Assembly (NCBI RefSeq): GCF_000189295.2 | Contig: NC_016803.1 | Location: 2,250,001 to 2,282,000, forward strand | Reading direction: 5' to 3' | From: Pseudodesulfovibrio mercurii | GTDB taxonomy: Bacteria; Desulfobacterota; Desulfovibrionia; Desulfovibrionales; Desulfovibrionaceae | Length of the DNA stretch: 32,000 nt | The notes under the pieces: generated by a model | The model's input: the letters and a program-made list of their open reading frames with translations, nothing else | What the model was told of the DNA's origin: nothing | Database searches by the model: none | Made by a program: the position numbers and the translations under genes | Part shown: positions 1-17,458 of the stretch, piece by piece | How positions within the stretch are numbered: the stretch's first letter is position 1 | Layout of the letters: every line of letters starts with the position of its first letter

Positions 1-1991
1 CGTTCCTCGGAGTACTTCTGGGCATAGCGCTGGCAGACCGCGTCGATCTCCTTGGCGATGGCGTCGGCGTACCTGTCGTTGTTGCCGTAGCTCGGGGCGG
101 AGCGCAGGATCGCGCGGACGTCCTCGTAGCCTTCGAAGTTGGCGGTGATGGCCTTGAGCACTTCGTCCATGGTCAGCTTCTTGTCCTCGAAGACCACCTT
201 CTTGATGGCGGCCAGGGAGTCGACAACGGTGCCGTAGCCCAGGAACTCGAAGTAGGAGTATTCCAGGCCGCCCGGGATGAACTGGTTCTGGAGGTCCAGG
301 CCTTCCTTCATGCACAGGTCGTGCAGGACGGAAGCCAGCGGGGTGGCGAAGTGCTGCGGGCGCAGGGAATCGACGATGTACTGCTGGCGGAAGGCCTTCA
401 CGAGCAGGTTGTTGTGCTGCTTGAGGTAGGCGTCGTAGAACTCCTCCCAGGTCTTCATCCTGGTCACGTCACCGGTCTCGAGGCCGATCACCTGGTCGCC
501 GTACTTGAGCATGCGGCCGTTGTGCATGGTCATCTCGATGGCGGTGGCGAAGTTGATGTAGACGCAGCCGGAGGTGTAGGTCTCGCAGTTGGGCATGCGG
601 GCTTCGGTGCAGCCGGACACGGAGTAGTCCATGGCCTGGTCGTAGGGAGCGCCCTTGGCGGTGTACAGCGGGATGATCTCCTCATCGTTGATCAGCTTCG
701 GGAAGCCGGAGCCGTCCTTGATGGTCTCGGCGATCTCGGCCAGGAACCGCTCCGGGGAGCAGGAGTGGATGCGGGCGGCCAGGTCGGGGTAGTTCAGCGG
801 GAACTCGCGCTTGGACTCCAGGAAGAGGTAGGACAGCTCGTTGGTGGCGTCCTCGCCCTGCGGGGTCTGGCCGCCGATGGTGACGGCCTCCCAGTGGGCG
901 TAGCCTTCGTTGAACTCGTTGCCGGTCGGGTTGATGTACAGGTCGATGAACTGCGCCATCTCGACCCACATCATCTCGAGAAGCTCCTTGGCCTGGCCGG
1001 GGGTCAGGATGCCCGCCTTGATGTCCTGGTCGTAGAACGGGAACAGGTACTGATCCATGCGGCCGTTGGAGATGATGGCGGAAGCCTTCTGCTCGATGCG
1101 GGAGAACATCTGGACGAACCACTGGGACTGTATGGCGTCGCGGAAGTCCTTGGCGGGCTCGGCGGGCATGCGCTCGCAGCGGTCGGCCATGGCCAGCAGC
1201 TCGGCCTTGCGGACCTTGTCGGTCTCCTTGGCGGCCAGGTCGCGGGCCAGGGCGGCATGGCGGCGGGCCCACAGCACGATGGCGTCGCAGATGATGACCA
1301 TGGCCTCGTAGAAGGGCCGCTTCTCCCACATCTGGACCGGGCTCTGGTCGTCGAGTTCGGCCATGCGCTCCTGGGCCTCGCGCTTGATGTCGTTGAAGCC
1401 GCGCTTGAGGACCTTGTCGTAGTCGTGGACCCACTGCAGGGCGGAGCGGTAGGAGGAGGTCTCGGAGACGACGAACTTGGACTTCAGGCCCATGTCGTCA
1501 TCGTAGGTCACGCCGCGCAGGTCGTCGGGCATGGCCCCGTTCAGGTGCTCGTGGTAGGTTTTGCCCTTCCAGTAGGGGGCGATCTCGTTGACCACGATGT
1601 CCACCTCTTCCTTGGTGATCTTGAACGGGCTCTTCTCGCGCTTGTCCAGGTCGCCGAGGATGGAATAGAAATCGCCGTCGATCTCCGGGTACAGGATGCC
1701 GTAGCGGCCGAGCTTGCCGGAGCGGCCCGCGATCAGGGAGCCGGGGGTGATGTACACGGTCATCTTCTCGGCGCAATTCTTCAGCGCCTTGGCCCAGCGG
1801 AGCACCATGGGCTGGCCCTCGGTGGCCCTCATGGACTCGGTGAAATACCGGGCGCGCTCGATGTCGATGAACGGCGTGGTCATGTGGAAGGAATCCAAAA
1901 TCTTGTAGATGCGCTCACGTCCGGCACGGGTGTCGACGCTGTTGGCAATGCGTGCTTCCTGCGGGGAAAGACAGCAATCATAATTGGTCAT
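1..1991 (-). CDS. Glycyl radical enzyme (pyruvate formate-lyase superfamily, Cys-X-Glu eliminase type; IslA/HpsG-like sulfonate C-S lyase candidate). 663 N-terminal codons are visible; the C-terminus with the glycyl-radical motif lies beyond the window start.
   Basis: Absent from the ORF track because it runs off the edge. Manual reverse-complement translation from ATG 1991..1989 (SD in attGAGGAGAatacgaATG) is open down to position 3. It reads [70 protein letters not shown]...[21 protein letters not shown]...[21 protein letters not shown]...[27 protein letters not shown]...[33 protein letters not shown]. The Cys loop G-C-x-E and the overall layout are typical of GRE 1,2-eliminases. Confidence 0.9.
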
Positions 1992-2076
1992 TCGTATTCT
2001 CCTCAATGAACGTTTGTTTGTTTTTTTCTACCAAATGGTGGTGGAGCCACACGCTCACAGCGCTGGCCACGAATAA

Positions 2077-2092
2077 GCAACTATGGTGCCAA
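2077..2092 (-). promoter_or_regulatory. Sigma-54 (RpoN) -24/-12 promoter for the GRE gene
   Basis: The minus strand reads TTGGCAC-CATAG-TTGCTT, an exact TGGCAC-N5-TTGC. The predicted TSS is about 2065, giving a leader of about 75 nt to ATG 1991. Confidence 0.7.
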
Positions 2093-2387
2093 CATCATAA
2101 CATCTCGAATAAACACGCCATTCATTGGAAACGCCCCCGAACGGCCCCGGACCGAATGGGGGGGGGCAAACGTTGCCCGACCGCAACAAATTCATGAAAA
2201 ATAAAATATTACAGCGTGATATAAAACCTGTTGCAGGATTGCACACGGAGATTTGTTGCAACCGCGCACAAGGGGGGCCGTCCGGCGAGGCGGGAGACAG
2301 GGGGAAACGGGGCGGCCCGGCGGGCGCATGATGTATGCAATGGGCCGGAAAACGGCGGGGGAAGCGGCCGCCGGACGTGGACGGGCA

Positions 2388-2402
2388 TGGCACTGCGCTT
2401 GC
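2388..2402 (+). promoter_or_regulatory. Sigma-54 -24/-12 promoter for the amidohydrolase-like gene
   Basis: The plus strand reads aTGGCAC-TGCGC-TTGCTaa, an exact TGGCAC-N5-TTGC. The predicted TSS is about 2413, upstream of SD AAGGAG (2435-2440) and GTG 2448. Confidence 0.7.
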
Positions 2403-2447
2403 TAACCGGCGCACCATCGCATGCACACAACCACAAGGAGAAAAACC

Positions 2448-3278
2448 GTGCAGATAATCGATTTCCGTTTCCGTCCCAACACCCAGGCCACCATCGACGG
2501 CTTCACCAACAGCACCATGTTCAAGGGCATGTTCGCCAAGATCGACCTGACCCACCTAGTGGCGCAGGAAGTGCCCGAGGTGGTGGAAATGATCAAGAAA
2601 CACAGCGTGGTGAAGGCCGTCATCACCGGGCGCGACTGCTCCACCACCTATGACGCGGCCGCCAACAACGGCGGGGTGATCTCCTTTGTGAAGGCCTTCC
2701 CGGACATCTTTCTCGGCTTCATGGGCGTCGATCCCCACAAGGGCATGCCGGGCATCTACGAACTGACCCGCCAGATCACCGAAGAGGGCATGCACGGCGC
2801 GGCCATCGACCCGTACCTGGCCAAGATTTTCGTTAATGACGCCAAGTACTACCCCATCTACGCCAAGTGTTGCGAGCTGAACATTCCCATCGTCGTCTCC
2901 ACCGGTCCCGGCACCCTGGTGCCCGGCGCGGTCATGGAGCACGCCGCCCCCCGCTACATCGACTACGTGGCCCGCGACTTCCCCGAGCTGAAGATCATCA
3001 TCAGCCACGGCGGCTACCCCTGGGTGGAGGAGGCCATCATGGTCACGGAGCGCAATGAAAACGTCTACATGGAGCTGTCCGAATACGAACGCCACCCCGG
3101 CGGGGAATCCTATGTGAAGGCGGCGATCAACCTGATCGGCGACAAGCTGCTCTTCGCCAGCGCCCATCCCGGCGCGGATTTTCGCGACGCCATCGCCATG
3201 TACAAGAACTTCGGCCTGCCGGACGACGTCCTGGAGGCCGTCATGTTCAAAAATGCACAGAAGGTGCTGGGTTTGTAG
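2448..3278 (+). CDS. Amidohydrolase_2 (PF04909-like TIM-barrel) family protein, atypical because canonical metal ligands appear replaced
   Basis: Track ORF 2421..3278. I prefer the in-frame GTG at 2448, which has AAGGAG 7 nt upstream; ATG 2421 would sit only about 7 nt from the predicted sigma-54 TSS with no SD. Fold-typical strings: QIIDFRFRP (where HxH normally sits), PELKIIISHGGYPW, NVYMELS, LLFASAHPG. Confidence 0.75.
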   Translation: MQIIDFRFRPNTQATIDGFTNSTMFKGMFAKIDLTHLVAQEVPEVVEMIKKHSVVKAVITGRDCSTTYDAAANNGGVISFVKAFPDIFLGFMGVDPHKGMPGIYELTRQITEEGMHGAAIDPYLAKIFVNDAKYYPIYAKCCELNIPIVVSTGPGTLVPGAVMEHAAPRYIDYVARDFPELKIIISHGGYPWVEEAIMVTERNENVYMELSEYERHPGGESYVKAAINLIGDKLLFASAHPGADFRDAIAMYKNFGLPDDVLEAVMFKNAQKVLGL

Positions 3279-3309
3279 CCAACAGGCCGAATACACGCAC
3301 GTTTTGCAA

Positions 3310-3339
3310 GGGGGCGCGAAAGCGTCCCCTTTTTATTTG
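3310..3339 (+). terminator. Rho-independent terminator after the amidohydrolase-like gene
   Basis: GGGGGCGC-GAAA-GCGTCCCC forms an 8-bp stem with one G.U pair and a GAAA tetraloop, followed by TTTTTATTT. Confidence 0.8.
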
Positions 3340-3793
3340 CCCATCGCGCTGCCCGTTCGGAGGGAAAACACGCCCGATTGCCAGAAAGAACGCCCTCCGG
3401 GCGCGCGTGTTGCCCGTTCCGCCACTCTCTGCTAAGTCGGATTGCCACGGGTTGTTGCCGTGGCGCAACCGTTGCGACAGCGCAACAATAGACATATTAA
3501 ATCAATAAATTCAAATTAATAGTATTTGTTTGGTCCGCCGGACACAACGTCTGTTGCAGGGCTGAAACAAGGGAAGCCTTTTGCCTTGTCCCTCTTGCCC
3601 CACATTTCACAATCCCCACCCTTCGGACGGGGCGTCTTTTCGAAAAAATCTGTTTTCGGCCACTTCTTTGAGCGTCACAGCGCGTAAAATCTGCATTCTA
3701 GCCGCGTTATGACAATAATGTATCCAGTTATCACTGTCACTTAATTAAATTACCTCCGATTTTGGTCCGGTATTGTTCCTGATTTCACAAGAG

Positions 3794-3808
3794 AGGCACC
3801 CTCCTTGC
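3794..3808 (+). promoter_or_regulatory. Candidate sigma-54 promoter for the TRAP-AKR operon
   Basis: gAGGCAC-CCTCC-TTGCAc has GGCAC-N5-TTGCA with correct spacing; only the first T of TGGCAC is replaced by A. An AT-rich tract (about 3700-3760) lies just upstream. The promoter is about 290 nt before dctP ATG 4096. Confidence 0.55.
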
Positions 3809-4095
3809 ACTTCCCGGTTCGGTTCGCGCGGTTGAGGAACCCGCCGGACTTGAGCCTCCGTCTCCTCCTCATCGGTGTGGAGCCCGAACCAAGACGAGGC
3901 GATCGGCCATGAACATGGCCACCGACGACGGTCCGGAATGAAGAAGCGGTCAAACGCATCCCGCGCCAGGCGGTCGTCGGAAACAGGGTTACGTTGATAA
4001 TCGATGGAATGACTAGGTAGCCGTGATGCTCCGCATCACCCGTACAAGCCTGTAGCCGGAAGGCCTACTTCTAACCTGTCAATCTGGAGTTCAAG

Positions 4096-5097
4096 ATGAA
4101 AAAAGCTTTGATCCTCGTTATGACCGCAGCATTGTTGATATGTTCCGTGTCCGCCTTTGCGGAAGAGTACCAGAAGACCATGATCATGGCGGCAACGGCC
4201 AATCCCACCGGAAGCCTGCACGCCGTCGCGCTGGAAAAGTTCAAGGAGATCGTCGAGCAGGAATCCAACGGCAATGTCCGGGTCAACCTTTTCCTGGGCG
4301 GTTCCATGGGCTCCGAGCAGGCGAACGTGAAGCAGCTCCGCGACGCCGAACTGCACGTCGCCGTCCTGGCGGCGGGCAACCTGACGCCCTTCGCCCCGGC
4401 CGCCACGATCACCATCCTGCCCTATCTCTTCCCCAAGATCGAAAACGCCTACACGCTTCTGGGCAATGGGCAGTTCGTCTCCGAACTCGGTGACGCCGTC
4501 GCCACCCAGAGCCAGACCCGCCCCCTGGGCTGGCTCATCGGCGGTTACCGCGTGCTGACCAACTCCAAGCACAGCATCACCAAGATCGAGGACCTGCAGG
4601 GCCTCAAGATTCGCGTGCCCAAGGTCCGCATTCAGCTCGACTCCTTCCGTGCCTGGGGCGTGGAGCCGCATCCCCTGGCCTGGTCCGAGACCTTCAATGC
4701 CTTGCAGCAGGGCGTGGCCGACGGCCAGGAGAACCCGCACTCCATCAACCAGGACCAGAAGTTCTGGGAAGTGCAGAAGTACATCACCGATCTGCACTAC
4801 ATGCTCTGGGTCGGTCCCCTGCTCGTTTCCGAGAGGTGGTTCAAGTGCCTCCCCGAGAACACCAAGGCGCTCGTCATGAAGGCCGCCACCGAGTCCTGCA
4901 CGTATGAATGGGAATGGGTCGCCAAGCAGAACCAGGTCGCCCTGGACAACTGCCTGAAGCACGGCATGGTCCTCGAAGAACTGACCGACGAGAACGTGTG
5001 GATGGAAAAGGCGCGCGCCCTGTGGCCCGAGTACTATGACGCCGTGGGCGGCAAGGACAAGATCGACAATGCCCTGAAGATCATGGGCCAGAACTAG
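4096..5097 (+). CDS. dctP: TRAP transporter substrate-binding protein (DctP family)
   Basis: 333 aa. Signal peptide MKKALILVMTAALLICSVSAFA. DctP-family layout including GGYRVLTN, which carries the conserved anion-binding Arg. SD tGGAG lies upstream. Confidence 0.9.
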   Translation: MKKALILVMTAALLICSVSAFAEEYQKTMIMAATANPTGSLHAVALEKFKEIVEQESNGNVRVNLFLGGSMGSEQANVKQLRDAELHVAVLAAGNLTPFAPAATITILPYLFPKIENAYTLLGNGQFVSELGDAVATQSQTRPLGWLIGGYRVLTNSKHSITKIEDLQGLKIRVPKVRIQLDSFRAWGVEPHPLAWSETFNALQQGVADGQENPHSINQDQKFWEVQKYITDLHYMLWVGPLLVSERWFKCLPENTKALVMKAATESCTYEWEWVAKQNQVALDNCLKHGMVLEELTDENVWMEKARALWPEYYDAVGGKDKIDNALKIMGQN

Positions 5098-5158
5098 AAT
5101 CGAAAGCAATCGGGCGGGCTGCGGCCCGCCCACAATCTCCCGCGGCGGTAATCCCAGT

Positions 5159-5668
5159 ATGTCCATAATCAAAAAATTCTTTGCAAACTTTGAGGAAGGC
5201 GCCTGCATGATTCTGATTGCGACCATGGTGTTCGCCCTCACGCTGCAAGTATTCATGCGTTTTGTGCTCAGCTCGTCTCTGGCCTGGACCGAGGAACTGT
5301 CCCGATACAGCTTCATCTGGTCCGTGTACATGGGCGGCGTGCTGGCCGTGAAGCACACGCAGCACGTCCGCATCACGGCACAGCTCCTGGTCCTGCCTCC
5401 GAAAATCAGAGTGGCCGTGCTCATGTTCACGGATACGATCTGGATCGTTGCCAACTTCTTCATCGCCTATCAGTCCGTTCAAGTGCTGAAGTGCGCCTTT
5501 GAATTCCCCGAGATCTCCCCGACCCTGGGCATCGTCAAGGGCTATGTCGAGGCCATGCTCCCGGCCAGCTTCCTGCTGATGAACCTGAGGCTGATCATGA
5601 AATACTGGCATCTCGTCAAGAATCATGAACTGATGAGTCTTGCCCAAATCGGCGGAGGGGAAGCATAG
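5159..5668 (+). CDS. dctQ: TRAP transporter small permease (DctQ family)
   Basis: 169 aa and four hydrophobic segments. The N-terminus FFANFEEGACMILIATMVFALTLQVFMRFVL..WTEELSRYSFIW matches the DctQ pattern. Confidence 0.85.
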   Translation: MSIIKKFFANFEEGACMILIATMVFALTLQVFMRFVLSSSLAWTEELSRYSFIWSVYMGGVLAVKHTQHVRITAQLLVLPPKIRVAVLMFTDTIWIVANFFIAYQSVQVLKCAFEFPEISPTLGIVKGYVEAMLPASFLLMNLRLIMKYWHLVKNHELMSLAQIGGGEA

Positions 5669-6966
5669 TGTCCACCCTCGCCATAACCATCGTGTCCCTG
5701 ATCGTCTGTTTCTTCATCGGCATGCCCATTTTCATGTCGTTGATCATCTCGGCCATCATCGCCATCTCAACCTGCGGCTATCTGCCGCTGTCCATCATCC
5801 ACAACTCGTTGTTCGATGGTGTGAACCTGTTCCCGCTTCTGGCCATTCCCTGCTTCGTCATCGCCGGCACCCTGATGGAGCACGGCAACATCACCAAGCA
5901 GATCATCGACGTGGTCAAGCAGCTCGTCGGGCGCCTGCCCGGCGGCCTCGGCATCACCACCATCATGGCCTGTACCTTCTTTGCCGCCATCTCGGGCTCC
6001 GGACCGGGAACCGTGGCCGCCATCGGCACCCTGATGATCCCGTCCATGGTGCGCAGCGGATACACTCCGTCCTATGCAGCCGCCTCGGCATCATCGGGCG
6101 GTACCATCGGCATCCTGCTGCCTCCGAGCAACCCGATGATCATCTTCGCCATTCTGGCCAACGTGTCCGTCACCGCCATGTTCACGGCGGGTATCGTGCC
6201 CGGTCTCATGGTGGCCGTGTTCATGACCACCATGGCCATGATCAAGGCGAAGATGGAAGGCGTCAAAACCGACACCGAGCAGCCGCCGTTCAACCTGAAA
6301 GTCTTCCTGAAGAGTCTTTCCAAAGGCGGCTTCGCCCTGGCCACGCCCTTCATCATCCTGGGGTCCATCTATTCCGGCATGGCCACGCCCGTCGAGGCGT
6401 CCGTCATCGCCATCGTCTGGGCCCTGTTCGTGGGCATCGTCATCAACAAGGCCCTGCGCTGGAAGCACATCAAGCTGTCCCTGTTGGAAGGGGCCATGCT
6501 CTGCGGCACGGTCCTGTTCATCGTGGGCGCGTCCACCCTGTTCGGAAAGATCCTGACCTACGAGCAGGCGCCGCTGCGCCTGGCGAACATGGTCCTCGGG
6601 GTCTCCAAGGACCCGGCCATCGTTCTGCTGATGATCGTGGCCATTCTGTACTTCCTGGGTATGTTCATGGAGACCCTGTCCACCATGATCATCCTGGCGC
6701 CGGTACTCCTGCCCATGATCACGGGCCTCGGCATCGACCCGATCCACTTCGGCGTGATCATGGTCATCACCAACGAGGTCGCCATGCTCACTCCGCCCCT
6801 GGGGGTGAACCTCTTTGTGGCCTCGCGGATCGCGAACCTGTCGGTGGAGAGGATCTCGGTGGCGGTTCTGCCGTATCTGCTCGTCCTGACGATAAGCATC
6901 ATCATCGTCGTCTACTGCCCCTTCCTCAGCACATGGCTGCCGGCAGCCATCGGCGCTGGGCAATAA
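5668..6966 (+). CDS. dctM: TRAP transporter large permease (DctM family)
   Basis: 432 aa polytopic membrane protein. GTG start overlaps the dctQ stop (TAGTG). DctM-like motifs include PLLAIPCFVIAG and GGTIGILLPPS. Confidence 0.9.
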   Translation: MSTLAITIVSLIVCFFIGMPIFMSLIISAIIAISTCGYLPLSIIHNSLFDGVNLFPLLAIPCFVIAGTLMEHGNITKQIIDVVKQLVGRLPGGLGITTIMACTFFAAISGSGPGTVAAIGTLMIPSMVRSGYTPSYAAASASSGGTIGILLPPSNPMIIFAILANVSVTAMFTAGIVPGLMVAVFMTTMAMIKAKMEGVKTDTEQPPFNLKVFLKSLSKGGFALATPFIILGSIYSGMATPVEASVIAIVWALFVGIVINKALRWKHIKLSLLEGAMLCGTVLFIVGASTLFGKILTYEQAPLRLANMVLGVSKDPAIVLLMIVAILYFLGMFMETLSTMIILAPVLLPMITGLGIDPIHFGVIMVITNEVAMLTPPLGVNLFVASRIANLSVERISVAVLPYLLVLTISIIIVVYCPFLSTWLPAAIGAGQ

Positions 6967-7034
6967 TACGCAACCATCAATGATTACGACCGGCTCCGTC
7001 AGACTCTGGCGGAGCCGGTCTTGCGAGGTGGATC

Positions 7035-7979
7035 ATGAAATATCTCACGCTGCATACCGGCGCGAAAATGCCCGCCCTCGGCCTGGGGACGTGGCAGGCG
7101 GCCAAGGGAGAAGTGGCCGCCGCCGTCACCGAGGCGCTGCGCATCGGCTACCGCCACATCGACTGCGCCCACGTCTACGGCAACGAGGCCGAAGTCGGCG
7201 AAGCCCTGGCCGCAACGTCGGTCCCACGCGAGGACCTCTGGATCACGTCCAAACTCTGGAACAACGCCCAGCGCCCGGAGGACGTCCGGCCCGCGCTGGA
7301 GCGCTCCCTCGGGGCGCTCGGCCTCGAGTATCTGGACCTCTACCTGGTCCACTGGCCCGTGCAGCTCTCGCACGCGGTCATGTTCCCGCAGTCCCCGGAC
7401 GACCTCATCCCCTGGACCACGGAGCACGCGCTCGAGACCTGGGGGGCCCTGGAGGACTGCGTCCGGGCCGGGCTTGTGCGCCACCTGGGGACGTCCAACT
7501 TCAGCACGAAAAAGCTCCGGCCCCTGCTCGACAACGGCTCCGTCAAGCCCGCGGTCAGCCAGGTGGAGATGCATCCCTATCAGCAGCAGGACCGGATGCG
7601 CGAATTCTGCCGGGACAACGGCATGGCCGTCACCGGCTTCGCCCCCCTGGGTTCGAGACACCGCCCGGCCCACCAGCACCAGGAGGGCGAGCCGAGCCTG
7701 CTCGACCACCCGGATATCCTCGCCATGGCGGACAGGCTGGGCACCACCCCGGCATCGATACTGCTCGGCTGGGCCGTGACCCGGGGCACCTCGGTCATCC
7801 CCAAATCGACCAACCCGGAGAGGCTCCGGCAGAACCTCGCCGCCGCCGATCTCGAACTGGCCGCATCGGACATGGACGTCATTGCGGCCATGGACATGGG
7901 CTACCGTTTTCTCGACGGCTCTCATTGGATGATGGCGGGCTCCCCGTACACGCCCGAGAATCTCTGGGACGGAGAGTAG
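7035..7979 (+). CDS. Aldo-keto reductase (AKR superfamily, NADPH-dependent aldehyde/ketone reductase)
   Basis: 314 aa. The AKR catalytic tetrad context is visible: YRHIDCAHVYGNE (Asp, Tyr), ITSKLWN (Lys), YLVHWP (His). SD GAGGTGG lies upstream. Confidence 0.9.
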   Translation: MKYLTLHTGAKMPALGLGTWQAAKGEVAAAVTEALRIGYRHIDCAHVYGNEAEVGEALAATSVPREDLWITSKLWNNAQRPEDVRPALERSLGALGLEYLDLYLVHWPVQLSHAVMFPQSPDDLIPWTTEHALETWGALEDCVRAGLVRHLGTSNFSTKKLRPLLDNGSVKPAVSQVEMHPYQQQDRMREFCRDNGMAVTGFAPLGSRHRPAHQHQEGEPSLLDHPDILAMADRLGTTPASILLGWAVTRGTSVIPKSTNPERLRQNLAAADLELAASDMDVIAAMDMGYRFLDGSHWMMAGSPYTPENLWDGE

Positions 7980-8237: not shown

Positions 8238-9509
8238 CTACTTCCGGCAGGGCACGCCGTGGGATTTGTAGATTTCGCCGAGTTGGCGGATGAGGACCTT
8301 GTTGTTGAACACGGCGTGGGCGCGTTCGACGGCGGCGGGAATGATGGTCCGGCGCAGGTCGTTGTCGGTCAGGGCGCGGCGGATGATTTCCGCCAGGGCG
8401 CGGGGGTCGTTGGACGGGCAGAGCAGGCCGGTCCGTTCGTGGGTGACGAGTTCGGGCACGCCGGAGACGTCGGTGGCGGCCACGGGCACGCCGGTGGCCA
8501 TGGCTTCGGCGACGACGTTGGGGATGCCGTCGCGGTCTCCGTCCTTGGCCTTGCGGCAGCCCAGGGTGAAGCAGTCGGTGTGGTCCAGGAGTCTGATGAC
8601 CTCGTCGTGGGTGATGGTGCCGGTGAGGGTGGTGACGTCGTCGAGGCCGAGGTCATGGACGAGGTGTTTGATCCTGCGGTTGAATTTGGCCTTGCCCTCG
8701 CCGACCAGGGTGTAGCGGAAGTCGAGTCCCTGGGCGCGCAGTTCGGCCAGGGCCTGGAGCACGGTGTCGATCCCCTTTTTTTCCACGAAGCGGGCCACGG
8801 TGAGGATGTTGTAGGGCGGTTTTGCCTCGGGGGCGCGGCCGTTGGGCGAGAAGAGGTCGAGGTTGATCCCGTGGTAGACGCAGTGGATGGGGTTGCCGTT
8901 GGCCACGTGTTCGCGGAGGTACTGTTCGTTGTAGCGGGTGCAGGTGACCACGAACCTGGCGCGTTCGACCTTGTCCATGATGCGCCGGGGGTCCTGGGTG
9001 TAGATGTCCTTGGCGTGGGCCGTGAAGGAGAATGGGACGTCGGCCAGGAAGGCGGCGTACATGGTCACTGTGGTCGGGGTGTGGGCGAAGTGGCCGTGCA
9101 GGTGGCCGAGGTCCACGCCGTCGTCGAGCACGGATTTCTGGACGATGTAGCCCGCCTGGAGCATGTGCTTGACCCAGGTGTGTTTCTTGGGGGCCAGGCG
9201 GAAGCGCTTCTTCATGATCTTGAGGCAGTCGAGGTAGCGGCCGGGCATGCGCAGGAAGAGGCGGATGTTGTGGTAGAGCAGCCGGGGCAGTCCCCAGATC
9301 ATGGATTCGGGCAGGTAGGTGACCTTGGCCTTGATGCGCTTGATGGACTCGTGGGAGAAATTCTCGCGCGGGGCGCGCATGGAGTAGATGTGGATCTTGA
9401 AGCCCATCTCCTCGAGCAGTCGGATCTCGTTGGAGATGAAGGTCTCGGAAATGCGCGGGTACCCCTTGAGCACCATGCCCAGGGTCGTTCGTCCGTCGGG
9501 TGCGGGCAT
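8238..9509 (-). CDS. Glycosyltransferase family 4 (WcaL-like)
   Basis: This is the C-terminal 423 aa of track ORF 8238..10307. The real start is ATG 9509..9507, giving MPAPDGRTTLGMVLKGYPRISETFISNEIRLLEEMGF..., and it overlaps the upstream stop as ATGA. The GT4 C-terminal E-x7-E region is GIPNVVAEAMATGVPVAATDVSGVPELV. Confidence 0.85.
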   Translation of the reverse strand: MPAPDGRTTLGMVLKGYPRISETFISNEIRLLEEMGFKIHIYSMRAPRENFSHESIKRIKAKVTYLPESMIWGLPRLLYHNIRLFLRMPGRYLDCLKIMKKRFRLAPKKHTWVKHMLQAGYIVQKSVLDDGVDLGHLHGHFAHTPTTVTMYAAFLADVPFSFTAHAKDIYTQDPRRIMDKVERARFVVTCTRYNEQYLREHVANGNPIHCVYHGINLDLFSPNGRAPEAKPPYNILTVARFVEKKGIDTVLQALAELRAQGLDFRYTLVGEGKAKFNRRIKHLVHDLGLDDVTTLTGTITHDEVIRLLDHTDCFTLGCRKAKDGDRDGIPNVVAEAMATGVPVAATDVSGVPELVTHERTGLLCPSNDPRALAEIIRRALTDNDLRRTIIPAAVERAHAVFNNKVLIRQLGEIYKSHGVPCRK

Positions 9510-10672
9510 CAGCAGTTCTCGCGGAAGAATTGAAGGCGTTCGCGCATGACTTCGAGGCCGGTCATGGCGAAGGAGTCCAGGGCCGAGGAGTAGGGCGAGG
9601 GGTCTTCGAGCAGGGCGTTGATCTTGGCGCGCATGGTTTCGGGCGAGACCTGACCCCAGGGGATGTAGTCGCACAGTCCGCGGTCCTTGAAGACCTGGGC
9701 GCGGATGAGCTGTTCCCGGCGGGGGTTGTCGCGCGGGATGATCAGGGACGGCTTTTTCAGGGAAAGAATCTCGCACATGGTGTTGTAGCCGCCCATGGAG
9801 ACCACCAGGTCGGACCGGGCCATGCGTTTCTCCATGTTGCGCACGAAGGGCTTGATCTGGACCTTGAGGGCGCGGGCGCGGTCGGCCAGTTCGTCGAGCC
9901 GTTCCGGGGAGAGGAACGGGCCGGTGATCATCAGGGTCTTGAAGTCCACGGTGCCGTTGGTCTCGAGCATCTTGAGGTAGGTGTCGAGGACCACGTAGCC
10001 GTCGCCGCCGCCGCCGATGGTGACGATGACCTGCTTGTGCTTGCGCCGGGTCCTGCGGGTGCTCGGCACGAAGCGCGGGATGTAGCCGGTGAACACGGTC
10101 TTGGCGGCGATGTCTTCCGGGAAGGCGTACTCCACGATGGGGTCGTACATGGCCTTGGAGCCGTAGACCCAGATCTCGGAGTAGAGGTCGCGCAGGACAT
10201 CGGGAAATTTCTTGCGCGCCCAGTCGGCGCGGGTGGACTCGGCGTCGTCGAGGATGTCGCGCAGCCCGAGGACCACGCGGGAGCAGGGCAGGTGCTTGCG
10301 CATCCACTTGAGGGTGGGCAGGACCTCGCTCTTGAGGCCGGTGGGAACCTTGTCCACGATGAGCAGGTCCGGCTTGAAGCTCTTGGCCGTGGCCGAAATG
10401 ATGTTGGTGCGGATGGAGATGGCGATCTTGGGATCGACCTTGATGGAATGGGGCATGTAGACCATGTTGGTCTTCTTGATCATGCCGGGAATGCGCACGA
10501 AGTCGATGCCCCTGGGCATGGTGTACCGGCCGACGATGGGCGAGCCGGTGACGATGAGGATGTTGACCTCGGGCCCCACCAGGTTACGGGCGATGGCCAT
10601 GGTGCGGCGGATGTGTCCCAGACCGTAGGTGTCGTGGGAGTACATCAGGATATTGTAGGCTTTCGATTCCAT
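9509..10672 (-). CDS. Glycosyltransferase, MJ1255/VC2487-type (GT28 C-terminal-domain-like)
   Basis: Track ORF 9509..10723. I prefer ATG 10672, giving MESKAYNILMYSHDTYGLGHIRRTMAIA; the YSHDxxGLGHxRR N-terminus is typical of this family. The alternative GTG 10723 cannot be excluded. Confidence 0.75.
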   Translation of the reverse strand: MESKAYNILMYSHDTYGLGHIRRTMAIARNLVGPEVNILIVTGSPIVGRYTMPRGIDFVRIPGMIKKTNMVYMPHSIKVDPKIAISIRTNIISATAKSFKPDLLIVDKVPTGLKSEVLPTLKWMRKHLPCSRVVLGLRDILDDAESTRADWARKKFPDVLRDLYSEIWVYGSKAMYDPIVEYAFPEDIAAKTVFTGYIPRFVPSTRRTRRKHKQVIVTIGGGGDGYVVLDTYLKMLETNGTVDFKTLMITGPFLSPERLDELADRARALKVQIKPFVRNMEKRMARSDLVVSMGGYNTMCEILSLKKPSLIIPRDNPRREQLIRAQVFKDRGLCDYIPWGQVSPETMRAKINALLEDPSPYSSALDSFAMTGLEVMRERLQFFRENC

Positions 10673-10792
10673 CGGGTTTCCGCGTGTCACAAAAAAGGCC
10701 GGACAGTCCATCTTCTCCGGCACGTGATCACAGTATAGGCTTGCGTGGATTCTGTCCAGAACCGGGCCGGGGCAATGGCGGATTTCCCGGCC

Positions 10793-15416: not shown

Positions 15417-16067
15417 CTAGGCGTTTTTCTGGAACGCCTCCCAGTCGGCCAGGAAGGTGGCCAGCCCCTTGTCCGTCAGGGGATGCTGCATCAGCTGCAT
15501 GATCGTGGAGTACGGCAGGGTGATGACGTCCGCGCCGATCAGCCCGGCCTCGAGCACGTGCATGGGGTGGCGCACCGAGGCCACCAGGATTTTGGTCTCG
15601 AAGGCATAGTTGTCGAACATGGTCCGCATCTGCTCCACGGCCTGCATGCCGGACTGGCTGAGGCCGTCGAGCCGCCCCACGAAGGGGGACACGTAGGTGG
15701 CCCCGAGCTTGGCCGCCAGCAGGGCCTGGGTAGGTGAAAAGACCAGGGTCACGTTGGTCTTGATGCCCCGCTCGGTCAGCTCCCGGAGGGCCTTGAGCCC
15801 CTCGGGGATCATGGGGATCTTGACCACCACGTTGGTGCCGAAGGAGACCAGGTCCTTGGCCTCCTTGATCATCTCCTCGTGATTGGTGGCGATGACCTCC
15901 AGCGAGACCGGACCGTCCACCAGGTCGCAGATGAGCGCGGCCTGTTTGCGCCAGTCGCCGCCCTCGCGGGACATGAGGGTGGGATTGGTGGTCACGCCGT
16001 CGAGCAGGCCGAGCTCGCCCACTTCGCGGATCTGGTCCAGGTTGGCGGTGTCGAGAAAGAATTGCAT
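15417..16067 (-). CDS. tal: Transaldolase type 3B / fructose-6-phosphate aldolase family
   Basis: True start ATG 16067, with AGGAGG upstream, giving MQFFLDTANLDQIREVGELGLLDGVTTNPTL...VVVKIPMIPEGLKA...NVTLVFS. The 49 codons upstream in the track ORF are a spurious extension. Confidence 0.92.
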   Translation of the reverse strand: MQFFLDTANLDQIREVGELGLLDGVTTNPTLMSREGGDWRKQAALICDLVDGPVSLEVIATNHEEMIKEAKDLVSFGTNVVVKIPMIPEGLKALRELTERGIKTNVTLVFSPTQALLAAKLGATYVSPFVGRLDGLSQSGMQAVEQMRTMFDNYAFETKILVASVRHPMHVLEAGLIGADVITLPYSTIMQLMQHPLTDKGLATFLADWEAFQKNA

Positions 16068-16213
16068 GGTTCCTCCTAGGGGTCGGACAGGATGCTCCGG
16101 TGTTGTTGGAACGGGCATAACATAAACAAAATAAAGTGGAAACCTCCGGCACACGTTTTCAGCCAGTGCGCATTCTCCTTCCCCCCAGGCCCGCTTTCGT
16201 TTACATAGGCTCA

Positions 16214-17458
16214 ATGACCAAGATGAAACCCGTGCACATCGTCGGGCTGCCGCCCGGCTCCCTCACCCCGACCGGGTCCGCAGCCGCGGCCCTGGCCGAA
16301 GCCGACCTGGTGGTGGGCGGCAAGCGGCTGCTCGCGGCCTGCCCGGACAGCCTGATCCCGGCCCATGCCCACCGGCTGGCCATCGCCGGGTCCCTCGCGC
16401 CGGTCATTGAGACCATCCGCAAGGCCGCGCGCAAGGGGCGCAGGGTGGTGGTCCTGGCCGACGGCGATCCGCTCTTCTTCGGCATCGGCAAGCGGCTGGG
16501 CGAGGAACTGGGGCGCGAGAACCTGTTGGTCGACCCGAGCCTGTCCACGGTGCAGCTGGCCGCGGCCCGGCTGGCCCTGCCCTGGCAGGACATGGACTTC
16601 GTCTCCCTGCACGGGCGCGACGACTACGCGCCGCTCTACGCCGCCCTGGTTCGCGCGGACCTGATCGCGGTCTTCACCGACGCGGTAAACACCCCCGCCG
16701 AGGTGGCCCGCGCCCTGCTCGAACGCGGCGCGGACTGCTTCTCCATGACCGTGCTCGAAAACCTGGGCGCGCCGGACGAACAGATCCGGCCCCTGGCCCT
16801 GTGGGAGACCTGGGGCATGGAGTTCTCGCCGCTCAACCTGGTGGTCCTGGAACGGCAGTACCCCCCGGAGATTCCCCTGTCCCTGGGCATCCCGGACCAT
16901 TTCTACCTGCATCAGAAGAATTTGATCACCAAGCTGCCCGTGCGCGCGGCCGGGCTGGCCCACCTGGGCGTGGCCCCGGACTCCACGGTCTGGGACCTGG
17001 GCGCTGGCTGCGGGTCGGTGTCCATCGAGGCCTCGCACCTGGCGCGGCGCGGGCGGGTCTTCGCCGTGGAGCGGAACAAGACGCGGGCGGCCATGATCCG
17101 CGAGAACATCCGGCGCACCGGGGCATGGCTGGTGGACGTGGTCCTCGGCGACATGCCCGAGGCCCTGCACGGGCTGCCCGAGCCGGACCGCATCTTCATT
17201 GGCGGGGGACTGGGCGGGGAATCCAACCAGGACAACGCCCTGCTCGACGAGGCCTGCCGCAGGCTCCGGCCGCGCGGCCGCATCGTGGTCCACTGCATCC
17301 TGCTCGACTCCCTGCACACGGCCAAGGACCACTTCCAGGCCCAGGGGTGGCACTTCGGCGTGACCCAACTCCAGGCCTCGGCCACGGACTCCCTGGCCGG
17401 AGACCTGCGCTTCAAGGCGCAGAACCCCGTTTTCGTGCTCTGGGCCGAGAAGCCCTAG
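16214..17458 (+). CDS. cbiET: Bifunctional cobalt-precorrin-7 (C5)-methyltransferase / cobalt-precorrin-6B (C15)-methyltransferase, decarboxylating (CbiE-CbiT fusion, CobL-like)
   Basis: The N-terminal tetrapyrrole methylase domain has VVVLADGDPLFFGIG. The C-terminal class-I SAM methyltransferase domain has VWDLGAGCGSVSIEA. The start (16214 or 16223) is uncertain. Confidence 0.85.
   Translation: MTKMKPVHIVGLPPGSLTPTGSAAAALAEADLVVGGKRLLAACPDSLIPAHAHRLAIAGSLAPVIETIRKAARKGRRVVVLADGDPLFFGIGKRLGEELGRENLLVDPSLSTVQLAAARLALPWQDMDFVSLHGRDDYAPLYAALVRADLIAVFTDAVNTPAEVARALLERGADCFSMTVLENLGAPDEQIRPLALWETWGMEFSPLNLVVLERQYPPEIPLSLGIPDHFYLHQKNLITKLPVRAAGLAHLGVAPDSTVWDLGAGCGSVSIEASHLARRGRVFAVERNKTRAAMIRENIRRTGAWLVDVVLGDMPEALHGLPEPDRIFIGGGLGGESNQDNALLDEACRRLRPRGRIVVHCILLDSLHTAKDHFQAQGWHFGVTQLQASATDSLAGDLRFKAQNPVFVLWAEKP

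Follow-up and report, generated by a model that had tools for sequence, protein, structure and literature searches.

The first 7,979 nucleotides of a 32,000-nucleotide stretch of Pseudodesulfovibrio mercurii DNA (contig NC_016803.1, positions 2,250,001 to 2,282,000; the whole stretch is referred to as the window) carry a locus built around a glycyl radical enzyme (GRE). The GRE gene lies on the minus strand at 1..1991 (frame 3..1991). The window holds its N-terminal 663 codons, and the C-terminus lies past the window edge. A plus-strand gene divergent from it (2448..3278) encodes an Amidohydro_2-fold protein of 276 amino acids, called AH2 here. It is followed by an intrinsic terminator (3308..3340, plus strand) in which a 10-pair hairpin (3308-3331) precedes the T-run TTTATTT, and by a non-coding spacer of 817 bp (3279-4095). 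Beyond the spacer come, all on the plus strand, three genes for a transporter of the tripartite ATP-independent periplasmic (TRAP) type, namely the periplasmic binding protein of the DctP family (4096..5097), the small membrane subunit DctQ (5207..5668), and the large membrane subunit DctM (5668..6966), and finally a gene for an NAD(P)H aldo-keto reductase (AKR; 7035..7979). According to the sequence comparisons described below, this is probably a Pseudodesulfovibrio hps locus, and its host would use (S)-2,3-dihydroxypropane-1-sulfonate (DHPS) as a source of sulfite. The GRE gene is therefore referred to as hpsG, for a predicted (S)-DHPS sulfo-lyase, and the transporter genes as hpsK (predicted S-DHPS-binding protein), hpsL, and hpsM.

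Each gene product matched a known protein family. The GRE matched the PFL-like family PF02901 with 593 bits, AH2 matched PF04909 with 115 bits, HpsK matched PF03480, HpsL matched PF04290, HpsM matched PF06808 with 367 bits and TIGR00786 with 386 bits, and the AKR matched PF00248 with 190 bits. An earlier note on this DNA had described a truncated minus-strand GRE gene divergent from an amidohydrolase_2-like gene, followed by a terminator, about 800 bp of non-coding DNA, dctPQM, and an AKR gene, and this description stands. The terminator hairpin behind AH2 is retained in relatives via compensating changes (spacer alignment, columns 30-57). AH2 starts at the GTG at 2448, which is preceded by the ribosome-binding site AAGGAG at 2436-2441, and the resulting 276-residue product is recorded in public assemblies. 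A start at the ATG at 2421 was rejected, as an exact-sequence look-up of that product found no record. The reading frame of hpsL is open from 5159, and the gene call on an identical contig (L002) is 153 amino acids long. An 89-residue open reading frame called between AH2 and dctP in the related locus L004 was treated as spurious, with zero tblastn matches in L009-L012 and L048. The closest genomes are those of Pseudodesulfovibrio, and the GRE shares 94% identity with its counterpart in P. karagichevae 9FUS and with a protein that bears the name of P. thermohalotolerans.

The GRE most resembles HpsG of Bilophila wadsworthia. The HpsG structure (6LON) was its best match in the PDB with 1075 bits, compared with 965 bits for IseG (5YMR) and 902 bits for IslA (7KQ3). 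Likewise, identity was 69.9% to HpsG as against 59-64% to IslA/IseG. In a neighbour-joining tree of 59 sequences, an HpsG clade stood apart from an IslA/IseG clade, and the window GRE fell within the HpsG clade. Further evidence comes from the pocket residues, which are numbered here as in HpsG, based on a 2026 review and the 6LON alignment. Position 182 is Tyr in the window GRE and in HpsG, whereas it is Phe (F188) in the IslA type. Positions 303-307 read KASAI, including A306, where the IslA type has KTGT, including T312. Positions 477-478 are C-V rather than G-A, and position 676 is Ile rather than Phe (F682). Thr312 and Phe682 are documented active-site residues of IslA (PMC8473560).

Part of this pocket was read on a second contig (L001) that matches the window along 3513 bases at 100% identity and extends it leftward by 108 bases only. 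The signatures Y-R-x-A-L-Q, KASAI, C-T-E, and SGCV are in the window, and L001 adds R-Y-V-P-I. The catalytic residues C462 and E464 are present, 'SGCTEA' being aligned to C462-T-E464 of 6LON, and the sulfonate anchors R183 and Q187 are also in the window. The leftward extension, which the earlier note had called for, yielded the third anchor, R672, together with I676, but it reached neither the glycyl motif nor the activase and regulator genes. With the complete R-Q-R triad, the Cys-x-Glu loop, and 6LON as the best match, the enzyme belongs, as had been proposed, to the IslA/HpsG group of sulfonate C-S lyases. The accompanying suggestion of a gene combination outside the characterised loci did not hold up: the tree places the GRE with Bilophila HpsG, and its pocket residues are HpsG-specific.

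A profile score had to be discarded along the way. The window GRE fragment scored 1177.8 bits on NCBIfam NF048011, the 'HpsG' equivalog, whose cutoff is 1000. This score was rejected as proof of HpsG identity since IslA-clade enzymes reach 1431-1574 bits, one of them above B. wadsworthia HpsG (BwHpsG). In the control, a Desulfosporosinus IslA-clade enzyme scored 1574 bits, BwHpsG 1514 bits, and an actinobacterial enzyme 1431 bits. Besides the window GRE, the loci concerned are L042:4089-6569 and L030:10016-12480. Because the model is non-specific, the residues and the tree were relied on. NF048011 bears the name '(2S)-3-sulfopropanediol dehydratase', while the literature calls HpsG a sulfo-lyase. 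Automatic names in this GRE subfamily are unreliable. The actinobacterial enzymes (L030-L037; Gordonibacter, Eggerthellaceae, and Coriobacteriaceae) form a separate GRE clade with the signature F-R-S-N-Q, G-V, I-G, in which the sulfonate triad is kept. The gene order at these loci is GRE-activase-AH2, and a distant TRAP system is present in five of seven.

What does the transporter say about the substrate? The best PDB matches of the window DctP were 24GH and 24GG, with 476 bits and 65% identity over a gap-free alignment. They are structures of B. wadsworthia HpsK with and without S-DHPS (PMC13335735, 2026). In HpsK, the sulfonate of S-DHPS is contacted by R152, R173, and N95, the 3-hydroxyl by E74 and H42, and the 2-hydroxyl by N213 and W238, and W196 forms a cap (PMC13335735). 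All eight contact residues (H42, E74, N95, R152, R173, W196, N213, and W238) are identical in the window protein. By comparison, the isethionate-binding DctP 8T9T matched it with 135 bits only. On these grounds the window DctP is assigned as an HpsK orthologue, in line with the earlier expectation that the TRAP system imports an anionic substrate. Because an HpsG-type GRE occurs together with an HpsK-type DctP that keeps all contacts, S-DHPS is by far the most likely substrate.

The characterised hps system is that of B. wadsworthia, whose locus has been termed hpsGHKLM (PMC13335735) or a four-gene cluster (PMC8397734), and whose HpsG strongly favours DHPS over isethionate. The two systems share the HpsG-clade pocket, the S-DHPS contacts of HpsK, and the TRAP membrane subunits. 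They also share AH2: the B. wadsworthia contig that encodes hpsG (GRE 99% identical to 6LON) carries a 277-residue Amidohydro_2 gene divergent from hpsG, exactly as in the window. Identity between the two is 70% for the GRE, 65% for HpsK, and 51% for AH2. The window locus differs in the additional AKR after hpsM, in the 817-bp spacer with its own sigma-54 promoter that splits the units, and in its host, a Pseudodesulfovibrio rather than the gut bacterium Bilophila. The IslA/IseG systems resemble the window locus in the GRE subfamily, the R-Q-R triad, the Cys-x-Glu loop, and a PAS/sigma-54 regulator, but they differ in the pocket (F188, T312, and F682), in the product (acetaldehyde), and in being often encapsulated.

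In other words, the gene combination is not foreign to characterised loci, contrary to the earlier note, and the AKR is its only non-routine member. As one observation that would tell against a new system, that note had named a GRE clustering at high identity with a characterised enzyme whose loci routinely include the same accessory genes. This is largely what was found for the GRE, the TRAP system, and AH2, but not for the AKR. Comparison of gene neighbourhoods across relatives gave the same split: AH2 recurs beside sulfonate GREs, whereas the AKR is confined to Pseudodesulfovibrio-type loci. The locus thus appears to be a somewhat divergent member of the HpsG/HpsKLM type with a lineage-specific AKR, rather than a system for a new substrate.

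The genes expected left of position 1 were found in relatives. Loci whose GRE is 88-94% identical to that of the window (L004, L009-L012, L048, and L051) have one common layout, in which a PAS-Sigma54_activat-HTH_8 regulator and a radical-SAM activase are followed by the GRE, the divergent AH2, DctPQM, and the AKR. The activase of these relatives scored 472 bits on the HpsH-type model NF048010 of NCBIfam, above its cutoff of 430. The GRE C-terminus is also present, as a Gly_radical domain in L004 and as 'VRIAGYSAY' in P0121. The gene order in these relatives agrees with the expectation of the earlier note that the genes for the activase and for the sigma-54 activator adjoin the left edge of the window. 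A TauE-family gene lies next to the regulator in most close relatives (L004, L009-L011, and L051). In L004, a DsrE-family gene, a hypothetical gene, and a gene for a 455-residue Amidohydro_1/3 protein lie beside TauE (1229-3458), and these genes may be part of sulfur handling around the locus.

The three predicted transcription units are each preceded by a predicted sigma-54 promoter. The promoter of hpsG (TGGCACCATAGTTGC; 2077..2091, minus strand) is an exact -24/-12 consensus 86 nt before the ATG at 1991, and its equivalent in relatives lies ~100 nt from the start codon. The promoter of AH2 (TGGCACTGCGCTTGC; 2388..2402, plus strand) is also an exact consensus, 46 nt before the GTG at 2448, and is conserved in relatives at ~60 nt from the start codon. 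Exact TGGCAC-N5-TTGC elements numbered two in the window against 0.11 expected, and none of 100 shuffles gave two. The third element, in front of hpsKLM-AKR (AGGCACCCTCCTTGC; 3794..3808, plus strand), reads AGGCAC-N5-TTGCA. It has one mismatch, which leaves the dinucleotides GG and GC intact, and dctP begins 288 nt downstream of it. Taken alone, this element is non-significant. It is nevertheless credible because its position is kept in relatives (~300 nt before dctP in L004, L009, L011, L048, and the more distant Desulfoplanes L046) and because the block that contains it, GTTTTCACAAGAGAGGCACCCTCYTTGCA, is the best-conserved part of the spacer in an alignment of seven spacers. The leader between this promoter and dctP (3809-4095; 288 nt) is unusually long and contains a conserved GGTGTGGAGCC block at ~3876-3886. 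An Rfam scan of the whole window, this leader included, gave zero family matches.

A further element suggests where the activator may bind. Copies of the palindrome TGTTGC-N6-GCAMCA that deviate by no more than one mismatch are present at five distinct sites. Two of them (2171-2188 and 2254-2271) lie between the divergent promoters, where there is also a sixth, weaker copy at 2229-2246, and three (3453-3470, 3470-3487, and 3552-3569) lie 225-340 bp upstream of the third promoter. All matches in the window fall within these two intergenic regions (nine strand-matches against 0.23 expected). The TGTTGC half-sites hold their position in relatives, and the palindromes at 3453-3569 form a conserved block among them (spacer alignment, columns 185-221 and 283-300). 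These palindromes are candidate binding sites of the activator. With correctly spaced elements, an activator gene in relatives, and palindromes in both spacers, sigma-54 control of all three units is well supported at the level of sequence, as the earlier note had predicted for each unit: two promoters are exact, one is near-consensus, and their positions are conserved. Transcription would then proceed from sigma-54 promoters as hpsGH leftwards, AH2, and hpsKLM-AKR. The PAS-domain activator is encoded next to the activase gene in relatives. Its probable binding sites are the TGTTGC-N6-GCAACA palindromes, from which it would drive the three promoters on sensing the substrate or a product.

The AKR is the part of the locus that has no counterpart in the published Bilophila locus. 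It matches AKR1A aldehyde reductase best among solved structures (287 bits), followed by AKR4 and aldose reductase. With these enzymes and E. coli DkgA it shares the AKR family and the D-Y-K-H catalytic tetrad, which is complete (D43, Y48, K73, and H106). It fell under every NCBIfam equivalog cutoff (for DkgA, 218 against 425 bits). The AKR is a lineage-specific addition, found only in Pseudodesulfovibrio-type loci and not at the loci of Desulfoplanes, Nitratidesulfovibrio, Mailhella, or Desulfovibrio 7SRBS1. Acetol and anionic aldehydes are both substrates of aldose and aldehyde reductases, with AKR1A favouring the anionic ones. The AKR would most likely reduce hydroxyacetone, the carbonyl product of HpsG, to 1,2-propanediol. 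Alternatively, it would reduce an anionic sulfo-aldehyde, for example sulfolactaldehyde to DHPS. A hint towards the latter option comes from Desulfoplanes formicivorans, where a HIBADH-family/YihU-like reductase (L046:8919-9770) is divergent from AH2. In NCBIfam, it came closest to 2-hydroxy-3-oxopropionate reductase and to sulfolactaldehyde 3-reductase without reaching any cutoff, and it may be the functional counterpart of the window AKR.

It is also conceivable, with a probability that is low without being negligible, that the AKR is a passenger gene for general aldehyde detoxification and that the third unit functionally consists of hpsKLM only. Its restriction to Pseudodesulfovibrio-type loci would suit such a role, as would its nearest relatives, which are the broad-specificity AKR1/AKR4 enzymes. 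However, the gene directly follows dctM in all nine close loci (71-82% identity), a search for a plus-strand terminator between dctM and the AKR found none, and the Desulfoplanes locus has a different reductase of the HIBADH/YihU-like kind. These observations argue for a function of the AKR within the locus.

Behind the AKR, the window and its relatives part. A dCache_1 methyl-accepting chemoreceptor gene follows the AKR in L004 (15504-17393), L009 (627-2510), L010, L011, and L051, which suggests chemotaxis towards the substrate in these bacteria. In the window, this position is taken by minus-strand glycosyltransferase genes (8238-10723). The remainder of the 32 kb consists of unrelated genes, including those for glycosyltransferases, a radical-SAM protein, GNAT, EamA, transaldolase, tetrapyrrole methylases, MFS, AMMECR1, PilZ, and valyl-tRNA synthetase, so that 7979 is taken as the end of the locus. 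The gene of the transaldolase/fructose-6-phosphate aldolase family (15417-16214, minus strand) lies 7 kb off the locus, and nothing ties it to sulfosugar metabolism.

AH2 is the most puzzling member of the locus. It recurs with GREs of more than one substrate class. An AH2-seeded metagenome scan, with the AH2 alignment as the query, retrieved 80 loci. All 24 loci with at least 4 kb on both sides of AH2 carried GRE, activase, and/or microcompartment shell genes within 10 kb, and the same held for 42 of the 48 loci that span 6 kb or more. Among the adjacent GREs included in the alignment, none lacks the R-Q-R sulfonate triad. In the reverse direction, with the GRE as the seed, 8 of 13 HpsG-clade loci had AH2 no more than 10 kb away, as did 7 of 19 other C-S lyase loci (among them those of Eggerthellaceae and Gordonibacter). 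In other words, AH2 is a near-obligate companion of sulfonate C-S lyases, but the lyases do not always have AH2 nearby. A family-wide accessory of sulfite-releasing GREs, of both HpsG and IslA types, would fit this distribution. In the metagenome survey, AH2 does occur with IslA-type GREs. The Bilophila IslAB microcompartment cluster may also contain such a gene, as its gene 00649 is annotated as a 'hypothetical protein, predicted amidohydrolase' and has been given no role (PMC8667426). Two candidate leads were dropped. A tie of AH2 to the metal-dependent bile salt hydrolases of Bilophila was rejected because these are secreted Zn enzymes, and the Turicibacter-type enzymes were analysed as Amidohydro_3 (PF07969), which is not PF04909. 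A Phe/Gly difference near strand 8 was abandoned as an HpsG/IslA marker because the HpsG-linked AH2 proteins of Bilophila, Mailhella, and Nitratidesulfovibrio keep the Phe.

AH2 has the fold of a hydrolase without its metal site. The AlphaFold model (predicted local distance difference test score, pLDDT, 88.9) is a (beta/alpha)8 barrel of the Amidohydro_2 type. In Foldseek it matched 3IRS (Bordetella BB4693; E 4e-17), the LigJ hydratase (1e-14), and then dihydroxybenzoate decarboxylases. AH2 relatives all start with M-x-(I/V)-I-D-F-R-F-R-P, and in strand 1 (D5-F-R7-F-R9) R7 and R9 stand in place of the HxH motif. This substitution is invariant in 27 family members. In strand 8, the metal-binding Asp is replaced by Ala239, which is followed by an invariant His240, and the strand-6 His187 is kept. 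The earlier description of a ligand-depleted amidohydrolase fold is thereby confirmed, with R7-x-R9 and A239 invariant in the family and the barrel supported by both Pfam and Foldseek. LigJ, the dihydroxybenzoate decarboxylases, and the 5-carboxyvanillate decarboxylases of PF04909 share the TIM-barrel fold and H187 with AH2, which differs from them in the R-x-R and the Ala. As the HxH and the Asp are gone, the metal-dependent chemistry of characterised PF04909 members cannot be assumed. The uncharacterised 3IRS shares both the RxR motif and the loss of metal ligands. In the wider family, the D-x-R-x-R-P motif was present in 81 of the best 150 representatives, many with Ala for the strand-8 Asp, which points to a sizeable, metal-free D-x-R-x-R branch of PF04909. 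A literature search on this subfamily, on BB4693, and on PF04909 with microcompartments found nothing relevant.

Two forms of AH2 exist, and they differ at the C-terminus. The short form (276-284 residues) is found in loci without shell genes and includes the window AH2, which has no encapsulation tail, in a window without shell genes. The long form (305-323 residues; for example L043:10001-10924 and about 40 other loci among L053-L127) continues with a disordered, low-complexity linker and an amphipathic helix such as DLVGEIVREVMARLGR or IEKIIIENVLKELAKRG. The hydrophobic pattern of this terminal helix matches that of the PduD encapsulation peptide. Under a strict definition, the pattern was present in 78 of the 98 long forms, whereas all 21 short forms lacked it. 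In a model of one long form, the barrel extends to ~273, the pLDDT drops below 50 for residues 279-288, and the stretch 288-306 is helical. Long forms occurred in 32 loci with shell genes and in seven without, and the single short AH2 in a shell-gene locus was a frameshifted copy. AH2 is thus probably a cargo of isethionate-type microcompartments, the window protein differing from its IslA/IseG counterparts in lacking the encapsulation-peptide-like helix. No statement of AH2 as a microcompartment cargo was found in the searchable literature. In several long-form loci, a TauE-family gene directly follows AH2.

What could AH2 do beside these enzymes? A GRE and its activase alone are active in vitro (PMC8473560). 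AH2 is an accessory component because it is dispensable under these conditions and missing from many GRE loci. Because it is tied to sulfonate GREs of two substrate classes, its ligand should be something common to both, namely sulfite, the 2-hydroxyalkanesulfonate motif, or a sulfite-carbonyl adduct. The two arginines at the former metal ligands recall the sulfonate sites of HpsG and HpsK, which likewise contain arginines. Bisulfite adds reversibly to aldehydes and methyl ketones, giving alpha-hydroxysulfonates, and in isethionate-type microcompartments AH2 would sit where acetaldehyde and sulfite arise together. Sulfoacetaldehyde is handled as a bisulfite adduct (PMC6453916). AH2 may bind a sulfonate or sulfite species, and it may accelerate the step in which the alpha-hydroxysulfonate adduct of sulfite and the carbonyl product gives up free sulfite. 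Only tentatively, then, is AH2 proposed to handle sulfite or a sulfite-carbonyl adduct, for example by adduct breakdown or by handing sulfite on. The more specific proposal is equally speculative. On this view, AH2 would be a previously undescribed enzyme of anaerobic sulfonate respiration, either a lyase for alpha-hydroxyalkanesulfonates (carbonyl-bisulfite adducts) or some related catalyst in sulfite handling, and after C-S cleavage by IslA/HpsG-type enzymes it would set free sulfite and the aldehyde or ketone. A literature search for enzymes whose substrate is a hydroxysulfonate adduct brought up no relevant paper.

A role that requires no catalysis by AH2 is similarly doubtful. AH2 might be a partner without enzymatic activity, serving for instance as a scaffold, as a GRE chaperone, or as a buffer that binds sulfite. 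The lost metal site is consistent with such a role, as are the in vitro activity of GRE and activase alone and the lack of AH2 in about half of the GRE-seeded loci. However, 27 Desulfobacterota and Firmicutes sequences (60-82% identical to the window AH2) show no variation in some 90 alignment columns, the actinobacterial homologues from the locus survey being about 48-50% identical, and across these three phyla many of the invariant residues are polar ones of the kind found in TIM-barrel active sites. A chaperone of GREs would also be expected near other GRE types, yet every adjacent GRE checked is of the sulfonate type.

Several points weigh against assigning the region to the hps type. The activase, the regulator, and the GRE C-terminus were read from relatives, none of them being inside the window. 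NF048011 cannot separate HpsG from IslA-type enzymes and hence lends no support. The GRE is 70% identical to BwHpsG, below the >76% identity within the gut HpsG group (supplement of PMC8397734), which makes it an outlying member of the HpsG clade as judged from its sequence. AH2 was within 10 kb in only 15 of 32 GRE-seeded loci, and the RxR subfamily, including Bordetella 3IRS, also occurs outside GRE loci. The function proposed for AH2 is read from context and residue changes. The role of the AKR is a guess. Bilophila excretes hydroxyacetone, and its published hps locus lists no AKR.

Some of these points would suit the view put forward in the earlier note, that the locus serves a not-yet-assigned anionic, possibly sulfonated substrate, with pre-processing of a lactone or conjugate by AH2 and with the AKR as the source of the hydroxy substrate. 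It could draw on the 70% identity of the GRE to the characterised enzyme, on the absence of the AKR from the published Bilophila locus, and on an AH2 without known function. But the HpsG pocket and all ligand contacts of HpsK and HpsG are conserved, which leaves this view improbable. A precursor-processing role for AH2 fits poorly because HpsK binds free S-DHPS and because AH2 is equally tied to isethionate-type enzymes, including those of microcompartment loci, where the substrate needs no pre-processing. Moreover, AH2 lacks the metal site of the hydrolytic members of its fold. Least likely by our estimate, and very unlikely in itself, is an isethionate sulfite-lyase of the IslA/IseG type in a locus that imports and cleaves isethionate: the GRE is 59-64% identical to IslA/IseG with scores (902-965 bits) near that for HpsG, and the NCBIfam model cannot tell the two types apart, but the enzyme lies in the HpsG clade with A306 instead of T312, I676 instead of F682, and C-V instead of G-A, and the DctP matches HpsK with 476 bits as against 135 for 8T9T and keeps the contacts to both the C2 and C3 hydroxyls of DHPS.

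On the assignment to an hps locus, a pathway can be proposed by homology to the Bilophila proteins. HpsK would bind S-DHPS in the periplasm, and HpsLM would import it. HpsG, activated by the radical-SAM enzyme HpsH encoded left of the window, would then cleave the C-S bond to give sulfite and hydroxyacetone, and the sulfite would enter dissimilatory sulfite reduction.

DHPS is among the most abundant organosulfur compounds of the sea and of plant-rich diets, and its anaerobic cleavage feeds sulfide production. With the locus assigned in this way, Pseudodesulfovibrio joins gut Bilophila and Desulfovibrio as a host of the HpsG/HpsK system, and a complete regulatory map is obtained, with three predicted sigma-54 promoters and a candidate activator site. 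The analysis also reveals that the NCBIfam model by which such enzymes are named fails to distinguish DHPS-type and isethionate-type lyases. Beyond this locus, a single protein family, as yet uncharacterised, is associated almost exclusively with sulfite-releasing GREs and is apparently targeted into their microcompartments. If the proposed role of AH2 is true, the published two-protein picture of GRE and activase misses a conserved third component, and in isethionate microcompartments this component would be packaged via a C-terminal encapsulation peptide.

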